Shown: one piece after another, positions 2 through 59,715 of the stretch
Position numbering within the stretch: the first letter of the stretch is position 1
Layout of the letters: each line of letters begins with the position of its first letter
IMG/VR virus record: IMGVR_UViG_3300012147_000001
Span: 8,004 to 72,003 of that record
DNA: 64,000 nucleotides
Reading direction: 5' to 3' (one strand)
From: a virus
Position numbers and translations under genes: made by a program
Notes under the pieces: generated by a model
Database searches by the model: none
What the model saw: the letters and a program-made list of their open reading frames with translations, nothing else
Told to the model about the DNA's origin: nothing

Positions 2-2092
2 AATAATCAATTTACTGAAAGTTTTGGTTTAATGAATGCACATGCTATATCAAGAAAAGTTGGTCTTAATAGTTCAGTACCCACTAATGCAAGCCAAGCA
101 GAACCAATAATAGATAGATTAGCTACTTTAACTGCATTACGTGTTACTGCTAAAGAATATCCAGCAGACATGAAAAGAGCAGTTACTGTGTTTGAAGAAG
201 AATTTACACGTAGTAGTGACCCAGAAGAAAATGGAATCATATTTACTTTAATGAATCATGTTGATTATAAAAAACGAGCATCAGAACAATTATTTAATAA
301 TAATCCAATGCTTGTTGAAAAAGGTTACATAAGAGAGATTTATAATCCTAATAAAAGTTTTAAAGTAGCTCCAACAGCAGACATCGAATTAATGGGTAAA
401 GATGGTTTTACTGCTGTAGGTACAGTAGGTAAAGATGCATCTGACCCTAATACAACTTCAATGACTATGTATGTGACTGATATGGGTGCATTAGCTCCTT
501 GGCAAGCTGGAGGTGTTTCTATCGCAGGTATGACTAATAAAGGTACTAAGTATTTTAATACTGTGGCTCAAACTACAATACCTAATTCACATAAAACAGC
601 AGTAAATGCTACAAATACTATGAAACAAAATAAATTAAAAGATGCTCAAAATATTTATAATGGAACAGCAAAAACACAAGCTAAAAATTCATTAGTACCT
701 TTGCTTGATGACCAAGGTAACGTAAGTGATTATAGATATGTGATGCAAGAAAAAACTAAAGATTTGTTAGATGTTAATATTCAATTAAGTGATGTATTAG
801 GTGCTATGGAAGGAAATATGAAATCTAAAGTGGCTGGTACTGAAATTAACAGTAAGTATGTGGAAGCTCTTGTAGAAGACTATAACACCAACTTTAAAAC
901 AGACCCTGAAAGATATGTGTTTGTTGGATTAAATTCTGACAGAGCAGACTTGGAAGAACTGTATAAAATGATGCCATCAGATATGAGAGCACAAATTAAA
1001 GCAGCAACAGGACAAGATGGTATTTTTGTAAAACAAGATATTGTTAAGTTAGTTTTTGGACAACGTAAGTTTAGTATTCCTCATTATTTTAGAGAAAAAC
1101 AACGTTTAAATGATTTAAATGGTAAGTTAGGTAATATGTATTTATCAAAAGTATATAGAACTCTTGGCTCACCTAAAGCAGCTCATATAGAACAAAGCTG
1201 GCAAGAAGTTATTTCATTTGTAAAAGACACTATTGTTGTAAAAAGCATAGTAACTTTATTAGCAAACATTGCTAGTAACAATGTGTTGTTATGGTCTATG
1301 GGTGTTGGATTTAAAGACATTCTTGTTCAACAAGAAAGAGCTGTTAAATTTGCTGAAAAGTATCAAGAAGATAAAGAAAAAATTGATGAAATTAGTAGAA
1401 ACATTGTTGTAAATCAAAACAAAAAAGGTAATAGAACAGCTTTAATAGCAAAGCTTCAAGCAGAAAAAACTAAATTAGAAGATGAATTAATAACTAATCC
1501 TGTACATGATTTAATTGAAGCAGGTGTTTATCAATCTATTATTGAAGATATAGATATGCTTGATGATGAATTTTCTTACTCAACTAAACTAGAAGATTGG
1601 TTAGAGCCTGTAACAAGTAAAATACCTAAACAACTTAAAACTGTTGGTAATACTGTATTAATAAATCAAGGTACTCCTCTTTATGAGTTACTAAGACGTA
1701 GTACACAGTTATCTGATTTTGCAGCTAGGTTTGCATTACATGAACACAACAAAAATAAAGGAATGGATGCTAAAGATTCAATTAACATGGTAGTAGATAC
1801 TTTTATTGATTACGATTTACCAACACATAAAGGTATTGAATATTTAAATAGTATGGGTGGTATTTTCTTTACTAAATTCTTTTTAAGAATACAAAAAGTA
1901 ATATTAAATACTTTAGTAAACTCACCAGCAAGGTTTATTGGATTATATGAATTACAAGATTTGTTTGGTGGTTTATCTGACATTACTGATTCTTTTATAC
2001 TTACTAAAGACATTGGTTTTATGTTTAAAGACCCGATTGAAGCTTTAAGTGGATATTTTGATACACACCCATTAATACAATTACTTAAATAA
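2..2092 (+). CDS. Virion-encapsidated RNA polymerase (N4 gp50-like), C-terminal portion; 5' truncated by window edge
   Basis: Frame is open back to position 2. C-terminus (FIDYDLP..EYLNSMG..FFTKFFLRIQK) resembles N4-like vRNAP ends. It converges on the middle genes, as in N4. Confidence 0.85.
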   Translation, partial: NNQFTESFGLMNAHAISRKVGLNSSVPTNASQAEPIIDRLATLTALRVTAKEYPADMKRAVTVFEEEFTRSSDPEENGIIFTLMNHVDYKKRASEQLFNNNPMLVEKGYIREIYNPNKSFKVAPTADIELMGKDGFTAVGTVGKDASDPNTTSMTMYVTDMGALAPWQAGGVSIAGMTNKGTKYFNTVAQTTIPNSHKTAVNATNTMKQNKLKDAQNIYNGTAKTQAKNSLVPLLDDQGNVSDYRYVMQEKTKDLLDVNIQLSDVLGAMEGNMKSKVAGTEINSKYVEALVEDYNTNFKTDPERYVFVGLNSDRADLEELYKMMPSDMRAQIKAATGQDGIFVKQDIVKLVFGQRKFSIPHYFREKQRLNDLNGKLGNMYLSKVYRTLGSPKAAHIEQSWQEVISFVKDTIVVKSIVTLLANIASNNVLLWSMGVGFKDILVQQERAVKFAEKYQEDKEKIDEISRNIVVNQNKKGNRTALIAKLQAEKTKLEDELITNPVHDLIEAGVYQSIIEDIDMLDDEFSYSTKLEDWLEPVTSKIPKQLKTVGNTVLINQGTPLYELLRRSTQLSDFAARFALHEHNKNKGMDAKDSINMVVDTFIDYDLPTHKGIEYLNSMGGIFFTKFFLRIQKVILNTLVNSPARFIGLYELQDLFGGLSDITDSFILTKDIGFMFKDPIEALSGYFDTHPLIQLLK

Positions 2093-5351: not shown

Positions 5352-6080
5352 TTAAGGTTTGTAGTATTCTTCTAATCTGTCAAACACTAACTGCAAGTCA
5401 TTATCTACGTAGATTTGGTTTCTATTCCACATAGCTAAAGGTGCTCTCATACGCTCATTTACAGTTTCTTTAGTTAAACGAGTTTGAAAGCAGTGCTTAA
5501 ATCCTTCTAATTGGTCGTCTTCAGTAATATTTAATTGAGGACTTTTTTGACTAAGTGATTCAAGTTTAGATACATTAACTCGTTTAGTACTAATAACATT
5601 TGAAAAGTAAGATTCAATACCTTGAGCCATAAGAGAACCTTTAACTTTAACTAAAGTTTCAGTTACCATTTCACCTTCATTAAAAATGTCAGCAGTGTGA
5701 GCTAATATAGCAATTTTTTTATTAGTCTTAGCAACATACTGTTGCATAAGTCTTTTCCAAAATTGAGCATAATCACCCCAAGCAGAACGACCATCGGTAG
5801 CAGTAATAACATAAGTTGATTCATACATGTCCATTAAAAAAGTAGCAGTATCAATAATAATACCGTCAAACTTATCTGCATTTTGGTTCATGTAGTCAAA
5901 CGCTTCGTATACTTGCAATGGGTCAGTAATATTGAAAGATTTAAATGTGTTTTTAAATGGCAAAGCTTTGTTGTTTTCGCAATTAAGATACATCCAACGT
6001 TCTTGGTTTTTTAAATTACGGAGACACATGCTTTTGCCAGTGCCAGTTTTACCTGACACCAAGACAAAATTATTATTCAA
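5352..6080 (-). CDS. AAA (Sak4-like) ATPase (N4 gp44-like)
   Basis: Walker A GKTGTGKS, Walker B IIIDT; lies between primase and SSB. Confidence 0.85.
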   Translation of the reverse strand: MNNNFVLVSGKTGTGKSMCLRNLKNQERWMYLNCENNKALPFKNTFKSFNITDPLQVYEAFDYMNQNADKFDGIIIDTATFLMDMYESTYVITATDGRSAWGDYAQFWKRLMQQYVAKTNKKIAILAHTADIFNEGEMVTETLVKVKGSLMAQGIESYFSNVISTKRVNVSKLESLSQKSPQLNITEDDQLEGFKHCFQTRLTKETVNERMRAPLAMWNRNQIYVDNDLQLVFDRLEEYYKP

Positions 6081-22648: not shown

Positions 22649-22701
22649 TATAACTTGGCAGAAGTTTTAAACAGTTGGAAAGGAATTAACCAACAACTCA
22701 A

Positions 22702-22722
22702 TCATAATCGCTGAAAGCGATT
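22702..22722 (-). promoter_or_regulatory. Putative vRNAP-type hairpin promoter
   Basis: + strand TC-AT-AATCGCT-GAA-AGCGATT; same T-GAA-A loop as the early-region copies. Confidence 0.5.
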
Positions 22723-23540
22723 TAATCAAGTGGAGGTTCAATTCCTTTTTCTACATAAAAACGATATTGTCGCCAAAAACTACCTGTAAAATTACCAGAA
22801 CCACCTTTTTTAGTAACACGAGCAACATGTTCAAACGGACTTGCATGGATAACATCAGCATTAATTAATAAACCAAAAACTCTATTTACTTTATCAATAC
22901 TAGTATCTAGTACTCTGTAACTAACTTGAGCACAAGCAGTTACTGACATTTTAACTAAAGTTTTAATTGGATATTTTTCTTTATCATTTTCACTAACGTA
23001 AGGTAAATGCCATTGACCCCAATCAAGTAATTCAGGTTTATTATTAAGCATGGCACGATTCATTTGATTAGCTAATTCTCTAATTTCTGGTTGTGCATCT
23101 TTGTGAGCACGTAATGTATTCCAGTTATCCATTTTAGTAGTCGTCATTACTACTTTAATGTGTGTCCAAGGTTCAAGCATTCTGTTAGCTACTTGCTTAT
23201 GTACACCAACACTTTTAAGCAATAAAGTAAGAACACTAACCATATAGCCAGTAAATTTCCAAATTGCTTTAGCAAAGAATTTACGTACTGAACCAAGTTC
23301 AACATCAGCTTGCATACCAGCTTGTTTTTTACCCCAATGAATTGGTACAGCCATGTTTGACCAAACTAATTTAATAGCTTTCATTATAGGTATGGCTCTA
23401 CTACTTGCAGCATTACGAGAAAAATCTCTATGAGTCATAAACTCAGCATGAATAAATCTATGGTATTCAAGTTCAAAAGTAGTAATACGTTCACCTTTTG
23501 GATTAATACTATCTGCTATTATTCTTGCTCTTATTGTCAT
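22722..23540 (-). CDS. thyX: Flavin-dependent thymidylate synthase
   Basis: EFMTHRDFSRNAASSRAIP, LR...AQPEI, HASPFEH. Confidence 0.9.
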   Translation of the reverse strand: MTIRARIIADSINPKGERITTFELEYHRFIHAEFMTHRDFSRNAASSRAIPIMKAIKLVWSNMAVPIHWGKKQAGMQADVELGSVRKFFAKAIWKFTGYMVSVLTLLLKSVGVHKQVANRMLEPWTHIKVVMTTTKMDNWNTLRAHKDAQPEIRELANQMNRAMLNNKPELLDWGQWHLPYVSENDKEKYPIKTLVKMSVTACAQVSYRVLDTSIDKVNRVFGLLINADVIHASPFEHVARVTKKGGSGNFTGSFWRQYRFYVEKGIEPPLD

Positions 23541-26353: not shown

Positions 26354-26412
26354 AAAAAAATAAATATACTCTCCAAACCCACACTCCGAAGGAGTGGGAT
26401 TTAGGTAGTATA
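26354..26412 (-). terminator. Long hairpin (CACTCC-GAA-GGAGTG core) after RNAP subunit 2
   Basis: Perfect 6-bp core, outer TATACT/AGTATA pairing, T tract on the minus strand. Confidence 0.65.
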
Positions 26413-29458: not shown

Positions 29459-29478
29459 TCATTAAGGCGTGAAACGCC
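29459..29478 (-). promoter_or_regulatory. vRNAP-type hairpin promoter
   Basis: Template (+) TC-ATTAA-GGCGT-GAA-ACGCC. Confidence 0.8.
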
Positions 29479-29536
29479 AAGAACTTGGAATGTTACGCAG
29501 ATATATAATTCGAAGAGAGAATGTGTTTGTGTAAGA

Positions 29537-29566
29537 GTTTTAAGAACCGATAAAGGTTCTTAAAAC
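29537..29566. terminator. 12-bp inverted repeat, probable terminator
   Basis: GTTTTAAGAACC/GGTTCTTAAAAC just after the SLOG gene stop. Confidence 0.55.
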
Positions 29567-29576
29567 ATTAACGTAA

Positions 29577-32134: not shown

Positions 32135-32154
32135 TCATTAAGCGGTGAAACCGC
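32135..32154 (-). promoter_or_regulatory. vRNAP-type hairpin promoter
   Basis: Template TC-ATTAA-GCGGT-GAA-ACCGC. Confidence 0.8.
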
Positions 32155-32760: not shown

Positions 32761-32780
32761 CCATTAAGCCCTGAAAGGGC
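32761..32780 (-). promoter_or_regulatory. vRNAP-type hairpin promoter
   Basis: Template CC-ATTAA-GCCCT-GAA-AGGGC. Confidence 0.82.
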
Positions 32781-33137: not shown

Positions 33138-33170
33138 GATTAACTCCGAAGTTAGAACAAGGCAAGATTG

Positions 33171-33190
33171 CCACTAAGGGCTGAAAGCCC
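33171..33190 (-). promoter_or_regulatory. vRNAP-type hairpin promoter (outermost)
   Basis: Template CC-ACTAA-GGGCT-GAA-AGCCC. Confidence 0.82.
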
Positions 33191-33780
33191 TGTGTATGTT
33201 GAAGGGGTGGCAGTACCAGTAGTAGGTAGGTAGTGCATAGGGGGGGTGTGTTTTTGTTTTTGGGTTTAAAACAGTAAGTATTGCATTCATACTCAAAAAT
33301 GAAATTCCATCTAATAACTTAATTTTTCGTTATAAAACAATGACTTATGTTAGTAAGTAATAAATGTTAAAAAAATTATTATATATTAAGCTCTTAATGG
33401 CTCTGTGTGAGGTTTTAATTGTTAAGTAGGGTGAATGTGTGAGTGTAAGGTAGATAATGGCTCTGTGTGTTGGTTTAGTTGGTTTAATGTTATTTAGTAA
33501 AGCTTGCGGTAGCCCTTTCCTGTAACGAAGTGAGTATAGGAGTAAAAACAAGCTGTGGTTGTTTTTCTCCACTGCACGAGTGGAGGGAAAGCAAGTGAGA
33601 AGCGGATTGACTAATGACGCTTTGAACGGTCTTCTAGGAATAGGAGCGGAGCGACTATGTCCGTGGTTTTCCCAGTCTTAACTAGCTAGTCATTTGAGCA
33701 GGTGTCCGAGCCATGCTAATATGGCGACTTGTATACAACTAGACAAAAGAGTATGACTCAGTTTAAATAATGCTATATAG
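33191..33780. other. Non-coding strand-switch region; probable genome terminus / direct terminal repeat
   Basis: Divergent point between early and late arms, G7 tract, G/T skew; N4-like genomes end in terminal repeats between these blocks. Confidence 0.65.
33395..33469 (+). repeat. 15-bp direct repeat TAATGGCTCTGTGTG, two copies 60 bp apart
   Basis: Copies at 33395-33409 and 33455-33469. Confidence 0.85.
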
Positions 33781-33783
33781 TGG

Positions 33784-33812
33784 TTGACAATCATACTTAC
33801 TAAATGTGTAAT
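33784..33812 (+). promoter_or_regulatory. Sigma70-type promoter
   Basis: TTGACA-17 bp-TGTAAT. Confidence 0.7.
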
Positions 33813-33845
33813 TATTATCAATACAGGTATCCATTAATGCTAATT

Positions 33846-34175
33846 ATGTCACTTACAGTGAACCAAAGATTTACTAAGATAGATAACAATGTAATACATG
33901 ATAATAGGTTATCATCTAATGCAAAGACCATGTATTGCATAATGCAAAGCTTCCCTACAGGTAAACATGCGAGTAATGTTTATTTTATGAAAGCAATGAA
34001 ATTAAGCGAGCGTACTGTTACCAGAACACGTATGGAATTGATTAGAGCTGGTTATTTGGAAATAGAGAAAGTTAGTAAAAGAGAATATAAAGCGTTTCTT
34101 GGTACTAGCACAATTAGCGGATTAGAAGTTAAAAATAGGTACTATAAAGATGAACTACATTCTAAGAAAAGTTGA
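33846..34175 (+). CDS. Winged HTH protein resembling phage replication-initiator N-termini
   Basis: FTKIDN....D.RLS..AK..Y...SERTV.....EL...GYL; start placed downstream of the promoter. Confidence 0.75.
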   Translation: MSLTVNQRFTKIDNNVIHDNRLSSNAKTMYCIMQSFPTGKHASNVYFMKAMKLSERTVTRTRMELIRAGYLEIEKVSKREYKAFLGTSTISGLEVKNRYYKDELHSKKS

Positions 34176-34497
34176 TATGGGTAGTGATGCCTTAAACAGA
34201 GTAATGACTGAAGCTAAGATTAGTAACGGTGCTAAAGTACTTTACACTTTTCTTTTTGGATTGCGTTCTGGCGAGATTATTAATAATGAAAAGCTTATTA
34301 AAGATAATGTTGCTGTTAGTAGAGCTATGGTAAATAACTATAAACGAGAGCTTAAAGCACTTGGCTTACTGCACGAAAATAAAGATGGTGAATCTAATAT
34401 ACGATTTATGTATCTTGGCTCGCTAGGTGTTAATGCTTTAGTTTATGCTAAAGATTGGAAACGTGTTGAAATAAACAATGATTTTGAAGATGAATAA
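34150..34497 (+). CDS. Winged HTH protein, paralog of upstream gene
   Basis: ISNGAKVLY...SR..V....REL...GLL. Confidence 0.7.
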   Translation: MNYILRKVDMGSDALNRVMTEAKISNGAKVLYTFLFGLRSGEIINNEKLIKDNVAVSRAMVNNYKRELKALGLLHENKDGESNIRFMYLGSLGVNALVYAKDWKRVEINNDFEDE

Positions 34498-34516: not shown

Positions 34517-34726
34517 ATGTTTAGATACCAATGCCATAAAATTGTAGATGCCAAACCAATGAGTAGAGGACAGTATAATGTCTATCGTGGTTGGAAAATA
34601 CCTGATAACGAAAACCCAAAAGATGAAGGTTTTCTTGTTGTGTATAACCAAGGTACTGAAGACCATTATGAGTCATGGAGTCCTAAAAAAATATTTGAAG
34701 AAGGTTACACAAGGATTTATAAGTAA
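34517..34726 (+). CDS. Conserved small phage protein (PM.RG.YN.YRGW...Y.SWSPK..FE..Y family)
   Basis: Recognisable motif; AAGGAG RBS. Confidence 0.75.
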   Translation: MFRYQCHKIVDAKPMSRGQYNVYRGWKIPDNENPKDEGFLVVYNQGTEDHYESWSPKKIFEEGYTRIYK

Positions 34727-35130
34727 TGGCTGATATTACAATAAATACCGTTGTATTAGATGACTGTACAATTGGTGCGTTACAGTGCGGTAAGTTTAGG
34801 TGTTTTACTCTTGAATTACCTTGGATTAATAACGCAAATAGTATTAGTTGTATTCCAAGCGGTACGTATGATTACGTAGTACATCAAAGCCCAAGTTTAG
34901 GTAAAGTAATACACATTCTTGATGTTGAAAAACGAAAATGGATTTATATACATAAAGGTAATTTTAAACGACAAATTAAAGGCTGTATTTTAGTTGGTAC
35001 AATGCTTAAAGATATTGATGGTGATGGTTCACCTGATGTTGGTAGTAGTGGTACAGCATTTAATAATTTAATGAATGCTATTAGTTTAAATGGCGGAACA
35101 ATAACAATTAACGGAAAAGGAAGAACATAA
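34726..35130 (+). CDS. DUF5675 L,D-peptidase-like protein; candidate endolysin
   Basis: TIG.L, FTLELPW..N....SCIP.G.Y, IYIH.GN.....GCILVG. Confidence 0.75.
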   Translation: MADITINTVVLDDCTIGALQCGKFRCFTLELPWINNANSISCIPSGTYDYVVHQSPSLGKVIHILDVEKRKWIYIHKGNFKRQIKGCILVGTMLKDIDGDGSPDVGSSGTAFNNLMNAISLNGGTITINGKGRT

Positions 35131-35747: not shown

Positions 35748-36146
35748 ATGTTAAAAAGAGATTTATACGCAGTACTACACCTAGTATTAGCTACCATTTT
35801 AACTACAGTGCATAAAGATATAACTAAAAATAGTACCAGCTATAAAAAGTTTTTAGAAACTCTCAATGCAAGGGTATTTGCTGCTGAAAGTGAAAAAGAA
35901 ATTCGTATAGCTATAAACGAAATTAAGTTTTATCAAACGCCTATAGATAATGCTGTATTAGCTAATTTAATGTGGAAAGCGCGTAAATCATTTTATGAAA
36001 AAAACGTTGTAAGTGATGATGATGCTTCTGATGATGAAGGTGAAACAGAAGCTGATAGTGAAGGGGAAATAGATAATTCGGATTCAAATTCCGAAATACC
36101 AAAACCCCTAGCAAAGCCAAAACGAAAACCAAAATCTAAGGATTAA
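35748..36146 (+). CDS. Hypothetical protein with acidic then basic tail
   Basis: AGGAG RBS upstream. Confidence 0.7.
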   Translation: MLKRDLYAVLHLVLATILTTVHKDITKNSTSYKKFLETLNARVFAAESEKEIRIAINEIKFYQTPIDNAVLANLMWKARKSFYEKNVVSDDDASDDEGETEADSEGEIDNSDSNSEIPKPLAKPKRKPKSKD

Positions 36147-36154
36147 TTATTGTG

Positions 36155-36244
36155 ATGAATGGTAAGAAAAAAGAACCAATGAAACGAAAACCTGTTACTA
36201 GTAAAAAACCAAGTAACAAAAAACCTAAAAAAGAAAAGTACTAA
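36155..36244 (+). CDS. Lysine-rich micropeptide (29 aa)
   Basis: MNGKKKEPMKRKPVTSKKPSNKKPKKEKY; AAGGA upstream; followed by a terminator. Confidence 0.55.
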   Translation: MNGKKKEPMKRKPVTSKKPSNKKPKKEKY

Positions 36245-36247
36245 ACT

Positions 36248-36282
36248 AAAGCCAGAGAACTTAAAACATTTTCTGGCTTTTT
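36248..36282 (+). terminator. Intrinsic terminator
   Basis: AAAGCCAGA/TCTGGCTTT stem plus T tract. Confidence 0.75.
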
Positions 36283-36350
36283 AACGAGTAAGCTACGAGT
36301 ACAAAGGGTTTGCGTAGCAATACCCTGCCAGTACGGAGTAGCGTAACGAG

Positions 36351-36379
36351 TTGACAAAATACGATTAAACCTATATAAA
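36351..36379 (+). promoter_or_regulatory. Sigma70-type late promoter
   Basis: TTGACA-17 bp-TATAAA. Confidence 0.75.
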
Positions 36380-36409: not shown

Positions 36410-37111
36410 ATGAAATTAGGTATAGAAACAGTTAAAGCAGCGTGTCCACGCACATTAAAAAACAATGTTACACAAGACCTTGTAGACAAAATTAATAACA
36501 TACATACCGACCCTTTAATACGTGAATCAATGCAAGAAAAAGCATTAGGATTTATTAACATATTAACTGAAGGAAGGTTTCGTATTGATGACTATTTGAA
36601 TGCAGTAAAGTATGTTACATATAAAATATCAGATAGTACTAACCAAGAAGCTTACGCAAAAGCATTTCCACATCGCTATCAAAAATTTCTTACAGATGGT
36701 TTAGATGCTAAAGCTATATCAGCCTATGTTGCTATGTACGCGAAGGGTAAGCTGGTTACTATGCTTCTTGAACGTGCAATGATTCCAAGTTACTTGGTTA
36801 ATGCTGATAATTTCCAAAAAGCCATCAACACACAAGTTGAAATAATGCTTACTGCAAAAAGTGAGATGGTACGTATGCAAGCTGCTAACTCAGTAATGAC
36901 GCATACTAAAGCACCTGAAACAGCTAAGATTGACCTTAAAATAACAGACGAAACACAAAGTTCAGTTCTTGATGAATTACGTAAAGCAACACAAGAGCTA
37001 TCACGTAACCAACGTTTAGCAATTGAATCTGGTCAAATGACAGCTAAAGATATTGCACATTCAAGAGTAATAAAAGGTGAAGCTGTAGAGGTTGTGGATG
37101 ATAGAAACTAG
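36410..37111 (+). CDS. N4 gp69-like protein (putative terminase small subunit)
   Basis: GRF.I.DYLNAVKYV.YK, SE.VR..AANS..TH.K.PE; precedes terminase. Confidence 0.8.
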   Translation: MKLGIETVKAACPRTLKNNVTQDLVDKINNIHTDPLIRESMQEKALGFINILTEGRFRIDDYLNAVKYVTYKISDSTNQEAYAKAFPHRYQKFLTDGLDAKAISAYVAMYAKGKLVTMLLERAMIPSYLVNADNFQKAINTQVEIMLTAKSEMVRMQAANSVMTHTKAPETAKIDLKITDETQSSVLDELRKATQELSRNQRLAIESGQMTAKDIAHSRVIKGEAVEVVDDRN

Positions 37112-38705
37112 TGACTACGCTCCAGTAAAGAAAAAAACAGTAGAAGATTATCTTAATGCAATTAATTATTCAGATATTGAAAATTATATTCCATCAGCGT
37201 TTGCATTAGAGTTTGTTAACTTTATTAAGTTAGTAAATGAAGGAAGCACAGAAAACCTTACTCCTGTTGTACACTATCGAATGATAGATAACTTTATTGA
37301 TGATAACGATTTAGACACAATTAATATGTGTCATCGTGGTATAGCAAAGTCTACTCTTAAAGAATACCTCATATTGTACATTGGTGTTTATGGTGGCTTA
37401 CCTGAGTTTGGTAGAATACCTTACGGATTGTACGTATCAGATAGTATAGACAACGGTGTTAAGAAAATGCGTAAAGCATTAGAGTTTAGATGGAATAACT
37501 CTAAATTTTTACAAGATTACATTCCTACTATTAAATTTACTGACATACGTTGGGAATTTATTAACATTGAGAATGTTTCTAGCGTGTTTTCAGCGCATGG
37601 AGCTAAGACTGGTGTTCGTGGTACTCGTGAAAACAACTCGCGTCCTGTGTTAGCTTTACTGGATGATTTAATAGATGATGCTGATGCGCGTTCACCTACT
37701 GTAATATCTCAGGTAGAAGATACTGTATACAAAGCAATTGATTATGCACTTCACCCAACTAAAAGAAAAATTGTATGGTCAGGTACACCATTTAACGCTA
37801 AAGACCCTCTTTACAAAGCTGTAGAATCAGGTGCTTGGAATGTAAATATTTATCCTGTTTGTGAGAAGTTTCCATGTACTAAAGATGAATTTAGAGGTTC
37901 ATGGGAAGACCGTTTCCCTTATGAATTTGTGCTTAAGATGTACACTAAAGCTAAATTATCTGGCAAAGTAGCAGACTTTAATCAAGAAATGATGTTAAGA
38001 ATTATGTCAGCAGAAGATAGATTAATCGAACCACATGAAATGAAATGGTACAACAGAGATAAATTATTATCCCTTAAACCATTATTTAATTTTTACATTA
38101 CTACCGATTTTGCCACTAGCGAAAAAACAGGAGCGGATTTTAGTGTTATATCTGTATGGGCTTTAAATTCTAACGGTGATTGGTATTGGGTTGATGGTAT
38201 TTGTGAAAAACAACGTATGGATAAAAACATTGAAGACTTGTTTAGATTAGTACAAGAGTATAATCCAGAGTCTGTAGGAATAGAGATTAGTGGACAACAA
38301 GGTGGATTTATACCTTGGATTCAAGAGCAAATGATGGTTAAAAACTGTTTCTTTAATTTAGCATCTGATAAAGCTACCAATCAAGCAGGATTACGCCCCA
38401 CAACAAATAAGTTTCAAAGATTTAATGTTGTTTTACCTTGGTTCAAACAAAACAAAATGCACTTTCCTCAAGAAATGAGAGAAGGTAAATGTATGCGTGA
38501 ATGTGAAGACGAATTAATGTTAACAACAGTAGATGGTTTTAAATCTAAAAATGATGATTTTATAGATACAATAAGCCAACTAGCTCAGTTAAAAACTTAT
38601 AGACCTTCAAAAAATAATCAAGGAGTTGGTGCAGCAGATGATAATGGTTTATGGGAAGATGATACAGAATATGAATCAATATCCATAAGTTCTTATATTG
38701 AATAA
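37098..38705 (+). CDS. terL: Terminase large subunit (N4 gp68-like)
   Basis: HRGIAKST, LLDDL, GTP, TTDFATSEK..ADFS, DDFIDTIS. Confidence 0.95.
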   Translation: MIETSDYAPVKKKTVEDYLNAINYSDIENYIPSAFALEFVNFIKLVNEGSTENLTPVVHYRMIDNFIDDNDLDTINMCHRGIAKSTLKEYLILYIGVYGGLPEFGRIPYGLYVSDSIDNGVKKMRKALEFRWNNSKFLQDYIPTIKFTDIRWEFINIENVSSVFSAHGAKTGVRGTRENNSRPVLALLDDLIDDADARSPTVISQVEDTVYKAIDYALHPTKRKIVWSGTPFNAKDPLYKAVESGAWNVNIYPVCEKFPCTKDEFRGSWEDRFPYEFVLKMYTKAKLSGKVADFNQEMMLRIMSAEDRLIEPHEMKWYNRDKLLSLKPLFNFYITTDFATSEKTGADFSVISVWALNSNGDWYWVDGICEKQRMDKNIEDLFRLVQEYNPESVGIEISGQQGGFIPWIQEQMMVKNCFFNLASDKATNQAGLRPTTNKFQRFNVVLPWFKQNKMHFPQEMREGKCMRECEDELMLTTVDGFKSKNDDFIDTISQLAQLKTYRPSKNNQGVGAADDNGLWEDDTEYESISISSYIE

Positions 38706-58816: not shown

Positions 58817-59715
58817 TGCCAACATTTTTGCCTGAAAGTGTAATAGTACCTGACATTACTGTTTTTAATTTAACTGAAAGTGATTTTAACGGTAATGGTG
58901 TATTTGATAAATTAATGAAGTCTGTTAATTCTCAGATACTTGAACAGTACCAATCAGACCGCATTACTGCTGATAATTACGGTGCTGTTTATCTTGGTTC
59001 ACTTCAAACTGTATTAGCACAATCAGTGCAATTTTTGTTGACTAAGGATAAGGCAGCGTATGACGCTGCTTTGTCACTTACTCAAGTTAAAAACGGTATC
59101 CAACAAATTGAGTTAACAAAAGCTCAAATTGAAGAAATTGAAGCTCAAACAGATAAAATAAGACAAGAAATTGCTGTAAGTATAGATGCACAAACACTTA
59201 TACCGTTTCAGCGTGACAAGCTCTCTCAAGAAATATTACTTTTAGCTGGACAAGTTCGTAAAATAGATAAAGAAAACACTTTAATTGATGAAGAAATTCT
59301 TAAAATTAGACAAGAAATTTTAGTGCTTGAACAAAACGTATTGAATGCTATTGCTCAGGTAGAAAAAACTAATAAAGAAATTGATTTAATTGACCAACAA
59401 ATATTAACTGCTCAAGAGATTGTTCTTAAAACTAGAGCTGAAGCTAACTTACTAGAGCAACGTATTATTACAGAAATTGCTCAAACACAAGACGGTGCTA
59501 CTGGTATTGTTGGTGCTCAAACTTCATTGTATCGAGCACAAACTAAAGGTTTTGCAGATGATTCAATTCGTAAAGGAGTTAAAGCTGCTAACGATGTATT
59601 TGCAATAGCTAAGTCTAATGACCCAGATGCAGTAAATGACCCTACTAACATGCTATCTACGCTAGAGTATTTCTTAACTGTAATGCAAAGCGAACAAGCA
59701 AAAACTACTCCATAA
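58816..59715 (+). CDS. N4 gp54-like tail protein
   Basis: LT.....G.GVFD.LM, central heptad repeats, G..G.Q..LY..Q..GF. Confidence 0.8.
   Translation: MPTFLPESVIVPDITVFNLTESDFNGNGVFDKLMKSVNSQILEQYQSDRITADNYGAVYLGSLQTVLAQSVQFLLTKDKAAYDAALSLTQVKNGIQQIELTKAQIEEIEAQTDKIRQEIAVSIDAQTLIPFQRDKLSQEILLLAGQVRKIDKENTLIDEEILKIRQEILVLEQNVLNAIAQVEKTNKEIDLIDQQILTAQEIVLKTRAEANLLEQRIITEIAQTQDGATGIVGAQTSLYRAQTKGFADDSIRKGVKAANDVFAIAKSNDPDAVNDPTNMLSTLEYFLTVMQSEQAKTTP

Follow-up and report, generated by a model that had tools for sequence, protein, structure and literature searches.

A conserved, strand-specific G-A hairpin at the head of the terminase operon in N4-like phages

Results

The terminase locus

The window (the whole 64,000-nt stretch of viral DNA analysed here) encodes a small terminase (TerS) of the N4 gp69 type and a large terminase (TerL), preceded by a sigma70-type promoter and by an upstream operon that is closed by an intrinsic terminator (Table 1). 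The window TerS is 61% identical to the annotated TerS of phage PT15-A5. The terS promoter is one of only two exact matches to TTGACA-N17-TNTAA in the window, both on the + strand, and it is kept as TTGACAAAAT...CCTATATAA[A/C/G] in the related genomes L005, PT15-A5 and L033; it is missing from our consensus scan because that scan demands a T at the last -10 position. No intrinsic terminator is present at the equivalent place in these three relatives.

The upstream reading frame ORF_up has no Pfam or PHROG family; a tblastn search among phages gave no match, and a search for relatives from the ORF_up alignment found none. In L005, PT15-A5 and L033, the stop codon of the ORF_up homolog falls inside the 5' arm of the hairpin described below, and the L033 homolog of the Lys-rich ORF lies on the opposite side of that hairpin (L033 116-223). 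A tRNA and tmRNA search found none.

Table 1 Features of the terminase locus and of the region upstream of the 33784 promoter
Feature	Position	Strand	Remarks
Short G-A mini-hairpin	33637-33662	+	GGA-ATAG-GA-GC-GGA-GC-GA-CTAT-(G)-TCC, core GAGCGGAGCGA; 122 nt upstream of the 33784 promoter
Two wHTH genes	33804-34497		Upstream operon
ORF_up	35748-36146	+	132 aa; 22-23% identity to homologs
Lys-rich ORF	36155-36245	+	29 aa
Intrinsic terminator	36248-36282	+	12-bp stem (arms 36248-36259 / 36269-36280), 9-nt loop, T5; closes upstream operon
Irregular hairpin	36283-36352	+	70 nt; sequence, folds, covariation with L005, PT15-A5, L033
Helix P1	36283-36289 / 36346-36352	+	AACGAGT / ACGAGTT; tandem G-A/A-G inside
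Internal loop P1-P2		+	AA/GTA
Helix P2	36292-36296 / 36338-36342	+	GCTAC / GTAGC
Internal loop P2-P3		+	GA/GGA
Helix P3	36299-36302 / 36331-36334	+	GTAC / GTAC
Internal loop P3-P4		+	AA/GCCA
Helix P4	36305-36309 / 36322-36326	+	AGGGT / ACCCT
Bulge between P4 and P5	36321	+	T
Helix P5	36310-36313 / 36317-36320	+	TTGC / GCAA
Triloop	36314-36316	+	GTA; apex GCGTAGC = 36312-36318
terS promoter	36351-36379	+	TTGACA-N17-TATAAA; -35 = 36351-36356, -10 = 36374-36379
terS	36410-37111	+	N4 gp69-like small terminase; phrog_2109, E 4.5e-82
terL	37092-38705	+	Large terminase; phrog_38, E 1.5e-92

Architecture and fold of the hairpin

The nested pairing laid out in the original prediction matches the sequence exactly, and of the range that it had assigned to the element, 36283-36379, the hairpin takes up the part to 36352 and the promoter the remainder. 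The final TT of P1 provides the first two bases of TTGACA, and the hexamer ACGAGT occurs three times within the hairpin. A DNA contig of strain X3 matches the window at every position of 36294-36352 and has a difference at 36362.

With RNA parameters, the + strand folds at -26.7 kcal/mol (z -2.95), a value equalled by 1 of 200 shuffles. The DNA parameters give z -1.58 (equalled by 9 of 200), and the RNA fold of the - strand gives z -1.02 (28 of 200). Across the close members, the + strand z-scores are -2.95, -4.00 and -6.04 with RNA parameters, and -1.58, -1.34 and -3.01 with the DNA parameters of ViennaRNA, which model neither sheared G-A pairs nor mini-hairpins; the - strand RNA folds range from -1.0 to -3.1. 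When both strands of the window were scanned in 80-nt folds, the hairpin ranked 82nd of 15,980. Its stability by itself is good, not exceptional, and it is conservation with compensatory changes, not stability, that makes it more than a chance palindrome. In the window, L005, PT15-A5, L033, L093, L073 and L009, the hairpin is not followed by a T-run; the arrangement of an intrinsic terminator, a GC-rich hairpin and then a T/U run, is not found here.

Compensatory changes preserve the fold

We aligned the four sequences of the window family, which represent three lineages: the window, L033 and L005/PT15-A5, with TerS identities of 76, 62 and 59% among them. Of 76 cells, 98.7% are paired, and 6 of the 19 pairs have changed on both sides. 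When the 3' partners were shifted by 1-3 columns as a control, only 26-50% of cells were paired, with at most one compensatory pair. An unfitted MAFFT alignment submitted to RNAalifold likewise yielded 21 pairs, of which 6 are compensatory. Covariation extends over five nested helices, one of them an apical stem whose sequence is wholly different, and the asymmetric loops GA/RGA and AA/GCYA are conserved, while the counterparts of ACGAGT in the relatives read ACAAGT, ACGAGC and ACGCAGT. The majority of the double changes are of the transition type, and one U-G pair occurs in L005 and PT15-A5. Judged by TerS identity, two of the double changes arose on the window's own branch, on which the hairpin stands between a terminator and a promoter.

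The original prediction had named covariation and presence in relatives as its test; the structure is present there, and compensatory changes are found. The hairpin is thus a genuine signal under selection, since related phages preserve its fold by compensating mutations.

Distant members and a shared apex

Distant members were found by a script scan that scores G-A pairs, which revealed the same hairpin design before terS in clade B and in L009. In clade B, whose TerS is 43-44% identical, six distinct sequences show compensatory changes in 7 of 25 pairs. The L009 hairpin is 101 nt long, with 28-29 Watson-Crick and 15 G-A pairs and an identical GA/GGA loop. The same scan found no such hairpin upstream of gp69 in N4. 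The hairpin is single-copy and always near terS, and we conclude that it represents a class of single-copy, strand-specific module that N4-like phages place at the head of the late (terminase) transcription unit.

Two covariance models (R1 and R2) recovered only the four close members; their blanks are uninformative on distant relatives because they also missed clade B and L009, and G-A-rich hairpins are probably under-detected for the same reason. Weak covariance-model matches in L095 and L096 (both 11.9 bits) and in L128 (16.2 bits, inspected) were rejected. Pattern scans returned the known members plus chance matches, among which we count L117, L120 (in coding sequence) and all six matches in bacterial genomes. 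From the G-A scan, a match in L065 was set aside as it sits within an ORF, and further raw matches in L038, L014/L028 and L055 appear in the scan output only. Rfam gave no match at gathering score over the whole window, and at E up to 10 six weak matches in L004, L033 and L002, none overlapping the hairpin. In the literature searched, we found no description of a hairpin before terS of N4-like phages; the hairpins mentioned in the PT15-A5 paper are protein beta-hairpins only (PMC10579305).

In every member, GCG-N(1-2)-AGC caps the fold: the window has GCGTAGC, L033 GCGTAAGC, L005/PT15-A5 GCGTTAGC and L009 GCGTCAGC, and clade B has three overlapping copies of the motif. This is the "mini-hairpin DNA" sequence motif (GCGNAGC / GCGNNAGC; PMC13037366). 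The loops are GTA, GTTA, GTAA, GTCA and GAA, every one closed by GC...GC; the window, L093 and L073 have triloops, whereas those of L005, L033 and L009 are 4 nt long. The centre is T (GTA) in the window and L093, and GAA is confined to the L073 and L077 types. According to the same source, the GCGNAGC mini-hairpin melts at 70-76 C as DNA and accepts a GTTA loop, whereas the RNA version, r(GCGAAAGC), melts at only 39 C; such motifs occur at the primase origins of G4, St-1 and alpha3, at ssiA of RSF1010 and at N4 early promoters (PMC13037366).

The members also share tandem G-A loops in C-GA-G context. Because these mismatches are purine-purine and the apex is GCG-N(1-2)-AGC, a good hairpin forms on the + strand only. 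Among 95 regions upstream of terS, the + strand holds 81 occurrences of the apex motif against 27 on the - strand; the scan filter passed 10 long G-A hairpins on the + strand versus 0 on the - strand.

Position relative to promoters and genes

In most lineages, the hairpin lies about 0-35 nt from a late-type promoter or promoter-like block. The gap between hairpin and TTGACA is -2 nt in the window, 17 nt in L005 and PT15-A5, and 525 nt in L033; the proposed fusion to the -35 box is thus real in the window genome, where the TT is shared, and does not extend to these relatives. In clade B, about 5 nt separate the end of the hairpin from a conserved promoter-like block, and the spacing from apex to terS is constant at 63-71 nt (10 of 10 contigs). 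A promoter-like TTGTAA-N17-TAGTAT can be discerned by eye in the clade B alignment upstream of the hairpin.

It had also been proposed that the element is probably poorly transcribed, which does not hold in general: in L005, PT15-A5 and L033, a co-oriented ORF runs up to the hairpin, which starts on its stop codon, and no terminator intervenes. Judging from this gene order, it would inevitably be part of an mRNA in these genomes. In L033, it is squeezed between two co-oriented ORFs, with a ribosome-binding site and the next ORF within about 13 nt. In L009 and clade B, by comparison, no + strand gene lies upstream; that side holds just an end-type non-coding block and, on the opposite strand, the first early gene.

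A short G-A element upstream of the 33784 promoter

The original prediction further invoked a similar element upstream of the 33784 promoter. No second copy of the long hairpin exists there: neither covariance model matches, and the 300 nt upstream of this promoter fold at shuffle level (z -0.2 for RNA, -0.9 for DNA). What it meant is probably the short mini-hairpin at 33637-33662, which is of the type found in the early region of PT15-A5. The nearest-neighbour fold of this element is unsupportive (z -0.1), as expected because its stem rests on G-A pairs. The region is not conserved in PT15-A5.

Comparison with known structured signals

The early promoters P1-P3 of N4, which are read by the virion RNA polymerase (vRNAP) gp50, belong to the same phage family and are likewise strand-specific DNA hairpins. 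Their core is GCGGAGC, and the GC-GNA-GC mini-hairpin apex is common to them and the hairpin (PMC13037366); in both, stems are free to vary if pairing is kept (PMC4496689). They differ in their 5-7-bp stems, 3-nt loop, purine (A/G) at -11 and G at -10 (PMC4496689), and in occurring as several copies at the first-injected end, where they precede early genes and lie on the template strand of these. By contrast, the hairpin spans 70-101 nt, with 4-5 helices, at least three internal loops, G-A pairs and a loop of 3 or 4 nt that is often T-centred; it is single-copy, lies on the sense strand of late genes and adjoins a host-type promoter. The early-type motif CAYTAA-N5-GAAA has four matches in the window, none at the hairpin. 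By stem and loop size, by the base at the loop centre (T in the window and L093), by location and by its flanks, the hairpin does not read as an N4-type vRNAP promoter.

The middle promoters of LUZ7, identified by ONT-cappable-seq, are described as GC-rich stems of at least 6 bp with a 3-4-nt loop; they stand in front of middle genes, and the start (G) has been mapped some 15 bp further downstream (PMC9163698). P4 and P5 together (9-10 bp with one bulge, GC-rich, 3-4-nt loop) fit this description, but no gene lies in the would-be firing direction of the hairpin, and its lower stems are conserved too. The LUZ7 small RNAs between orf69 and orf70 were considered as an analogue and rejected, for they lie after the SSB gene and not by terS.

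The ssi signals (the G4, St-1 and alpha3 origins and ssiA of RSF1010) are ssDNA hairpins capped by the mini-hairpin motif, from which SSB is excluded and which primase reads; their role is to initiate synthesis of the complementary strand on phage or plasmid DNA that is single-stranded, and the G4 origin consists of three hairpins (PMC13037366) versus one here. The terminase hairpin, in contrast, sits in a double-stranded linear genome with its own primase, in an orientation that would copy the nearby end only.

The nearest RNA analogue is the RNase III sites of T7, intercistronic hairpins of about 2-3 helical turns with internal loops that lie near late-operon promoters. These differ in lying downstream of promoters, so that every transcript carries them, in being multi-copy and in lacking a G-A zipper or mini-hairpin cap. 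The T7 RefSeq record holds no RNase III site annotation, and T7 5850-5925 folds into two small hairpins that offer no useful comparison.

Discussion

Together, our results demonstrate a conserved hairpin before terS. We tentatively favour, at somewhat less than even confidence, the reading that it acts as a DNA hairpin, formed by one strand only at the late promoter's upstream edge, and that a phage protein recognizes it there. Three features favour the DNA-level role put forward in the original prediction: the presence of the apex motif throughout, the strand polarity and, in most lineages, the adjacency of a late-type promoter. A transcribed RNA element is the main rival. Precedent within the family also counts for it: the N4 vRNAP reads extruded DNA hairpins, N4SSB directs host RNA polymerase (RNAP) to late promoters (PMC4496689), and the middle promoters of LUZ7 are GC-rich hairpins (PMC9163698).

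We then propose a model for how such a DNA hairpin may work. Once the region is unwound, whether by negative supercoiling, by transcription or by the passage of a replication fork, the + strand would lock into a G-A-zippered hairpin capped by the mini-hairpin, while the complementary strand, with its pyrimidine mismatches, would fold more poorly and remain single-stranded. A phage protein could then recognize this asymmetric structure where it borders the promoter on the upstream side; an SSB-type activator of late transcription as in N4, a hairpin-reading polymerase and a primase are candidates, and late (terS) expression would thereby be coupled to the state of the phage DNA.

Several observations count against action as DNA. 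The + strand z-scores are better with RNA than with DNA parameters, although the latter omit sheared G-A pairs and mini-hairpins; the hairpin is part of an mRNA, by gene order, in L005, PT15-A5 and L033; a U-G pair occurs in two of these; and none was found upstream of N4 gp69 in the scan. Extrusion of a 70-nt imperfect palindrome from duplex DNA is difficult, and activation by N4SSB is not known to need its ssDNA-binding activity. Adjacency to the promoter is not obligatory either, given the distance in L033, and if TTGTAA-N17-TAGTAT is a real promoter, the clade B hairpin would fall in the terS leader RNA.

The same observations bear on the next most likely reading, that the sense transcript folds into a processing or stability element or a protein-binding site, located, depending on the genome, in the 3' end or an intercistronic part of the right-end operon or in the terS leader. 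The sense orientation in all members speaks for this, as do the start on an upstream stop codon, the closely following ribosome-binding site in L033, the better RNA folds on the + than on the - strand, the U-G pair, the candidate upstream promoter of clade B and the transition-type double changes, which are compatible with wobble intermediates. Purine-rich internal loops and GNRA-like caps are common in RNA. AGUAAG/GAA may be a loop of the UAA/GAN type. However, no single RNA role suits all genomes. The window hairpin, lying after a terminator and before a promoter, is neither a 3' end nor a leader, and its pairing has still been kept by two double substitutions on that branch; L009 and clade B have no upstream + strand gene; the loops closed by GC...GC obey the DNA mini-hairpin rule and not that of GNRA; and no Rfam family fits even at the relaxed threshold. 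An ssDNA signal for priming (an ssi-type site for the phage primase) or packaging (a terminase recognition structure, pac, adjoining terS), the alternatives raised in the original prediction, appears unlikely. It would agree with the mini-hairpin-capped hairpins that mark the primase origins and ssiA, with the occurrence in St-1 and alpha3 of GCGTTAGC, the same octamer as the L005/PT15-A5 apex (PMC13037366), with the single copy constantly near terS and with the putative genome-end block nearby in clade B and L009. Judging from gene order, though, a + strand template would be copied leftward to a genome end just 0.2-3 kb away, and the distance to the end-type block ranges from about 150 nt to 3 kb.

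It is rather improbable that a phage RNA polymerase, vRNAP or RNAPII, uses the hairpin as a promoter, reading the + strand as template and firing leftward, antisense to the neighbouring genes, toward the last-injected genome end. Beyond the fit of P4 and P5 to the LUZ7 description, this reading could draw on a + strand C that the window family conserves 13-14.5 nt to the 5' side of the loop's centre and on the L033 apex GAGC-GTAA-GCGA, which resembles the 11-mer GAGCGAAGCGA of the PT15-A5 early region. Yet the window and L093 have T in the middle of the loop, and N4 vRNAP requires a purine there, at -11 (PMC4496689); the loops also differ in length and sequence between members, in contrast to the constant GAA or GGA of early-type hairpins in these genomes. 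The C that might serve as the start is base-paired within P3, and clade B (L093) lacks one at that distance; the conserved lower stems serve no promoter role, and no leftward genes follow in the window family. A double-stranded operator is very improbable, whether as an inverted repeat bound by a dimer, for instance of a wHTH protein from the upstream operon, or as an array of ACGAGT direct repeats (iterons). The three ACGAGT copies and the two wHTH genes of the window suggest it, and covariation is also expected from co-evolving half-sites; but the three copies are not conserved, the covariation reaches through five nested helices to an apical stem of entirely different sequence, a symmetric dimer leaves the conserved asymmetric loops unexplained, and clade B and L009 have the hairpin with no wHTH operon in the stretch examined. 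A hairpin that has no function of its own, as a chance palindrome, a decaying terminator or part of a small - strand gene, is the least credible reading. It is consistent with the modest rank by stability alone and with the - strand ORFs that span the hairpin; it is already contradicted by compensatory changes in two clades, and no member has the T-run of a terminator, and the - strand ORFs lie in differing frames and are not conserved.

Returning to the preferred reading of a DNA hairpin, we speculate, with less than the tentative confidence expressed above, that N4-like phages possess a second class of structure-specific DNA signal besides the vRNAP promoters: long, G-A-zippered and capped by a mini-hairpin, present only on the non-template (+) strand and set at the head of the late/terminase unit. 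Its asymmetric extrusion would leave the other strand single-stranded as a landing site for an SSB-type activator or another phage enzyme, and late transcription by host RNAP, and packaging with it, might thus be turned on according to how far the DNA is replicating or supercoiled.

The timing of late transcription in N4-like phages is known in outline only, as host RNAP working with phage SSB at weak promoters. The present analysis adds a concrete cis element, a conserved strand-specific hairpin that heads the terminase operon in several clades and follows rules as in the family's DNA-hairpin promoters, and that can be tested in a system both cultured and harmless, PT15-A5 on Alteromonas mediterranea. 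If it acts as DNA, structure-read DNA signals would extend beyond the promoters of the injected polymerase, and tandem G-A "zippers" would have a natural case of use in vivo; should the hairpin act as RNA, it would constitute a new phage RNA motif missing from Rfam.

Genomic setting and fold of the hairpin

By gene content and gene order, the window (bases 8004-72003 of a 72,003-bp IMG/VR virus record) is that of an N4-like phage (Schitoviridae), and its nearest named relative is Alteromonas phage vB_AemP_PT15-A5 (TerS 61% identical). The - strand carries the early and middle genes, up to ~33.1 kb, and the + strand every gene from 33.8 kb onward. This + strand block opens with a small operon (two wHTH genes, DUF5675, crAss001_48-like, N4 gp49-like and a 132-aa ORF of no known function), followed by terS, terL and the structural genes.

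The hairpin before terS has the architecture described in the original prediction: nested pairing, two G-A-type internal loops and a GC-GTA-GC apex are all present, its last TT overlaps the TTGACA -35 box, with TATAAA 17 nt further on, and an intrinsic terminator lies immediately upstream. Just two sites in the window match TTGACA-N17-TNTAA exactly; they lie at 33784 and 36351, each on the + strand. The terS promoters of the window, PT15-A5 and two related viral contigs, L005 and L033, share a perfect TTGACA, a 17-nt spacer and a TATAA[A/C/G] -10 box without the usually invariant last T.

The + strand RNA fold reaches -26.7 kcal/mol (z -2.95; 1 of 200 shuffles as good); z is -1.58 for the + strand with DNA parameters and -1.02 for the - strand. 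The hairpin ranks 82nd among 15,980 80-nt windows in a genome-wide fold scan, and stability on its own would not suffice to single it out. Positions 36294-36352 are unchanged in a near-identical strain from another metagenome. The scan also returned other very stable long hairpins. Read on the - strand, the one at 26382 has C(UUCG)G and is followed by a T-rich run, and it likely terminates middle transcripts.

Features of the window and its relatives, with coordinates
Feature	Sequence	Position	Strand	Basis or remark
Hairpin	window	36283-36352	+	70 nt
terS	window	36410-37111	+	TerS 61% identical to that of PT15-A5
terS promoter	window	36351-36379	+	
Late-strand promoter	window	33784-33811	+	perfect TTGACA, 17-nt spacer, -10 TGTAAT
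Short G-A mini-hairpin	window	33637-33662		core GAGCGGAGCGA
CAYTAA-N5-GAAA copies	window	29460-29474, 32136-32150, 32762-32776, 33172-33186	+	motif scan
Other very stable long hairpins	window	59017-59096, 29489-29568	+	fold scan
Other very stable long hairpin	window	22673-22752	-	fold scan
Other very stable long hairpin	window	26337-26442		fold scan
Lys/Pro-rich ORF	window	36155-36245		upstream of hairpin
Lys/Pro-rich ORF	L033	116-223		downstream of hairpin
DUF5675 gene	window	34726-35130		
DUF5675 gene	L033	225-626		
Non-coding block	window	33170-33330		G7 run 33240-33246
Similar non-coding block	L009	~1180-1290		
Similar non-coding block	L093	~290-340		
Direct repeats TAATGGCTCTGTGTG	window	33395, 33455		
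Clade-B hairpin	L093	544-623		

The hairpin matches no Rfam family, is not a tRNA and has no T-run after it as a terminator would. It fails as a promoter of the N4 virion RNA polymerase (vRNAP) in its stem length, its loop centre and its location, and an iteron array was rejected because the three ACGAGT copies occur in the window alone, not in relatives. Nor does the hairpin belong to this phage's early-promoter class, CAYTAA-N5-GAAA, which is matched four times on the + strand between 29460 and 33186 and not at the hairpin. Each copy forms a 5-6-bp hairpin with a T-A-closed GAA triloop (four matches were reached in 2 of 100 shuffles), and these are candidate hairpin promoters that would use the + strand as template for leftward transcription of the early genes.

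A similar element had been placed upstream of the 33784 promoter as well, where no second copy was found. The short G-A mini-hairpin lying there is best read as being of the early-promoter type, since the PT15-A5 early region carries close variants of its core. The cores GAGCGGAGCGA, GAGCGAAGCGA (PT15-A5, twice, near 72124 and 72609) and AAGCGAAGCGC (near 69112) form GC-GNA-GC mini-hairpins, flanked by tandem G-A in the former two and by a close variant near 69112; from their sequence, these hairpins with G-A stems are candidate promoters of the virion polymerase.

The full-text literature searched contained no description of a hairpin preceding terS in N4-like phages; subscription journals and supplements may hold more. 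The PT15-A5 paper mentions protein hairpins only, and the hairpin promoters and small RNAs reported in the LUZ7 transcriptome study lie elsewhere in the genome (PMC9163698).

Covariation in close relatives

Among 465 TerS matches in phage records, PT15-A5 alone is at least 60% identical; among the best 80 of 536 IMG/VR relatives, only L033 (76%) and the L005 contig (62%) exceed 50%; the 14 metagenomic loci are all at most 49% identical. L005, PT15-A5 and L033 each have one homologous hairpin of 73-74 nt, and the alignment of relatives proposed earlier yielded compensatory changes. In a model-fitted alignment of the four sequences, evaluated for stems P1-P4 only because it misaligns the window apex, 98.7% of 76 cells are paired, and 6 of 19 pairs change on both sides (shuffles 2.6 +/- 1.0; 1 of 500 reaches 6). 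The four sequences represent three lineages, as a single hairpin base distinguishes L005 from PT15-A5. In a control, the 3' partners were displaced by 1-3 columns, which left 26-50% paired and at most one double-changed pair. RNAalifold recovered the structure from an unfitted MAFFT alignment too, with 21 pairs, of which 6 are compensatory. The apical stem differs in sequence from lineage to lineage and keeps its pairing in each, and the internal loops are kept as AA/G(W)A, GA/RGA and AA/GCYA. TerS identities of 76, 62 and 59% place the window with L033; therefore, the window-specific P2 and P4 pairs are double substitutions on the window's own branch. There is no conserved - strand ORF over the hairpin, such ORFs occupying different frames among the relatives.

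The fusion to the -35 box proved not to be a fixed feature: hairpin and TTGACA overlap in the window (gap -2 nt) and are 17 nt apart in L005 and PT15-A5. In L033 the distance is 525 nt, and a Lys-rich small ORF and the DUF5675 gene separate hairpin and promoter. The stop codon of the upstream ORF falls within the hairpin 5' arm in L005, PT15-A5 and L033, with no terminator; in the window, the Lys-rich ORF and the terminator intervene between the 132-aa ORF and the hairpin. The Lys/Pro-rich ORF (29-35 aa), not found in PT15-A5, and the DUF5675 gene are both shifted between the window and L033.

Related hairpins in distant N4-like phages

Scripts seeded on the apex motif, GCG-N(1-2)-AGC, and counting G-A as a pair revealed hairpins of this design in contigs where neither covariance model had found one. 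In clade B, a more distant N4-like group (TerS 43-44% identical to that of the window), hairpins are present in L093, L073 and L077. A scan with the clade-B apex pattern returned 31 IMG/VR stretches, 10 with a clade-B terS beginning 63-71 nt after the apex; these represent 6 distinct hairpin sequences (RNAalifold: 25 pairs, 7 compensatory). The stems are divided by GA/GA loops, the 5' arm has the GTAAG.TACGAGTA common to the window family, and the apex, GGCGAAGCG(T/A)AGCGA(A/G)AGCC, comprises three overlapping GCGN(N)AGC motifs. About 5 nt separate the end of the hairpin from a conserved promoter-like block, which is followed by terS. Another distant relative, L009 (a complete 73-kb record; TerS 42% identical), has a 101-nt hairpin that contains a GA/GGA loop, is held by 28-29 Watson-Crick pairs plus 15 of the G-A type, and has GCGTCAGC as its apex. 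Downstream of it, the first + strand ORF follows after ~70 nt and terS after 2 kb.

In 95 regions upstream of terS, 81 occurrences of the apex motif fall on the + strand and 27 on the - strand, a bias to which early promoters located in some of these regions contribute. The filter for long G-A hairpins was passed by 10 on the + versus 0 on the - strand, 3 of the 10 counted by the filter alone; one of the ten, in L065, lies inside an ORF and was set aside. The scan found no long G-A hairpin upstream of gp69 in N4 itself.

No + strand gene lies upstream of the hairpin in clade B or L009, only a non-coding G-run block and the first early gene on the opposite strand. The G-run is also present in the window, in a block conserved with PT15-A5 (G-run and CAGTAAGTA-like box); judged by sequence, such blocks may mark the physical genome ends. 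Direct repeats lie nearby in the window.

A further 21 viral contigs of 4-175 kb, among them L130, L138, L139 and L153, contain the apex pattern GCGAAGCGNAGCGARAGC without a terS match within 900 nt; in several of them it caps other long hairpins. GCGN(N)AGC is commoner than expected from mononucleotide shuffles, both strands together, in the window (18 vs 9.5 +/- 3.2) and PT15-A5 (55 vs 23.7 +/- 4.8).

DNA or RNA element

On the window family alone, an RNA element of the upstream operon was favoured; the distant relatives changed this reading. Taken together, DNA-level readings are now somewhat favoured. The mismatches take the form of tandem G-A flanked as pyrimidine-GA-purine, a context in which sheared pairs are stable in DNA. 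The clade-B and L009 hairpins have no upstream sense gene, and the window copy is still selected for pairing between a terminator and a promoter. Every member has the GCG-N(1-2)-AGC apex, described as a DNA mini-hairpin of extraordinary stability that melts at 70-76 C and tolerates a GTTA loop, against just 39 C for r(GCGAAAGC); the motif also occurs at the G4, St-1 and alpha3 primase origins, RSF1010 ssiA and N4 early promoters (PMC13037366). DNA hairpins are a known trait of the N4-like family (PMC4496689, PMC9163698).

That the hairpin acts as RNA is rather unlikely, but this explanation ranks close behind a DNA element at the promoter edge. All members are in sense orientation, RNA parameters give a better z than DNA parameters, one U-G pair is present, and a possible promoter can be seen by eye upstream of the clade-B hairpin. 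The poor transcription expected originally is not a general trait, as the hairpin is necessarily transcribed in L005, PT15-A5 and L033. A long imperfect palindrome is also difficult to extrude from duplex DNA. With DNA parameters, the clade-B hairpins give z between -2.2 and -4.7 for the + strand and between -2.1 and -4.0 for the - strand.

Observation establishes the fold, strand polarity, conservation and usual place of the hairpin. We tentatively propose that it acts at the DNA level, on the upstream edge of the late/terS promoter, a proposal to which L033 is the main counter-example. Upon unwinding, the + strand would lock into a hairpin zippered by G-A pairs; the - strand, whose mismatches are between pyrimidines, would remain open. 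A phage protein, for which an SSB-type late activator, a hairpin-reading polymerase and a primase are candidates, may read this asymmetric structure and make late expression depend on the state of the DNA.
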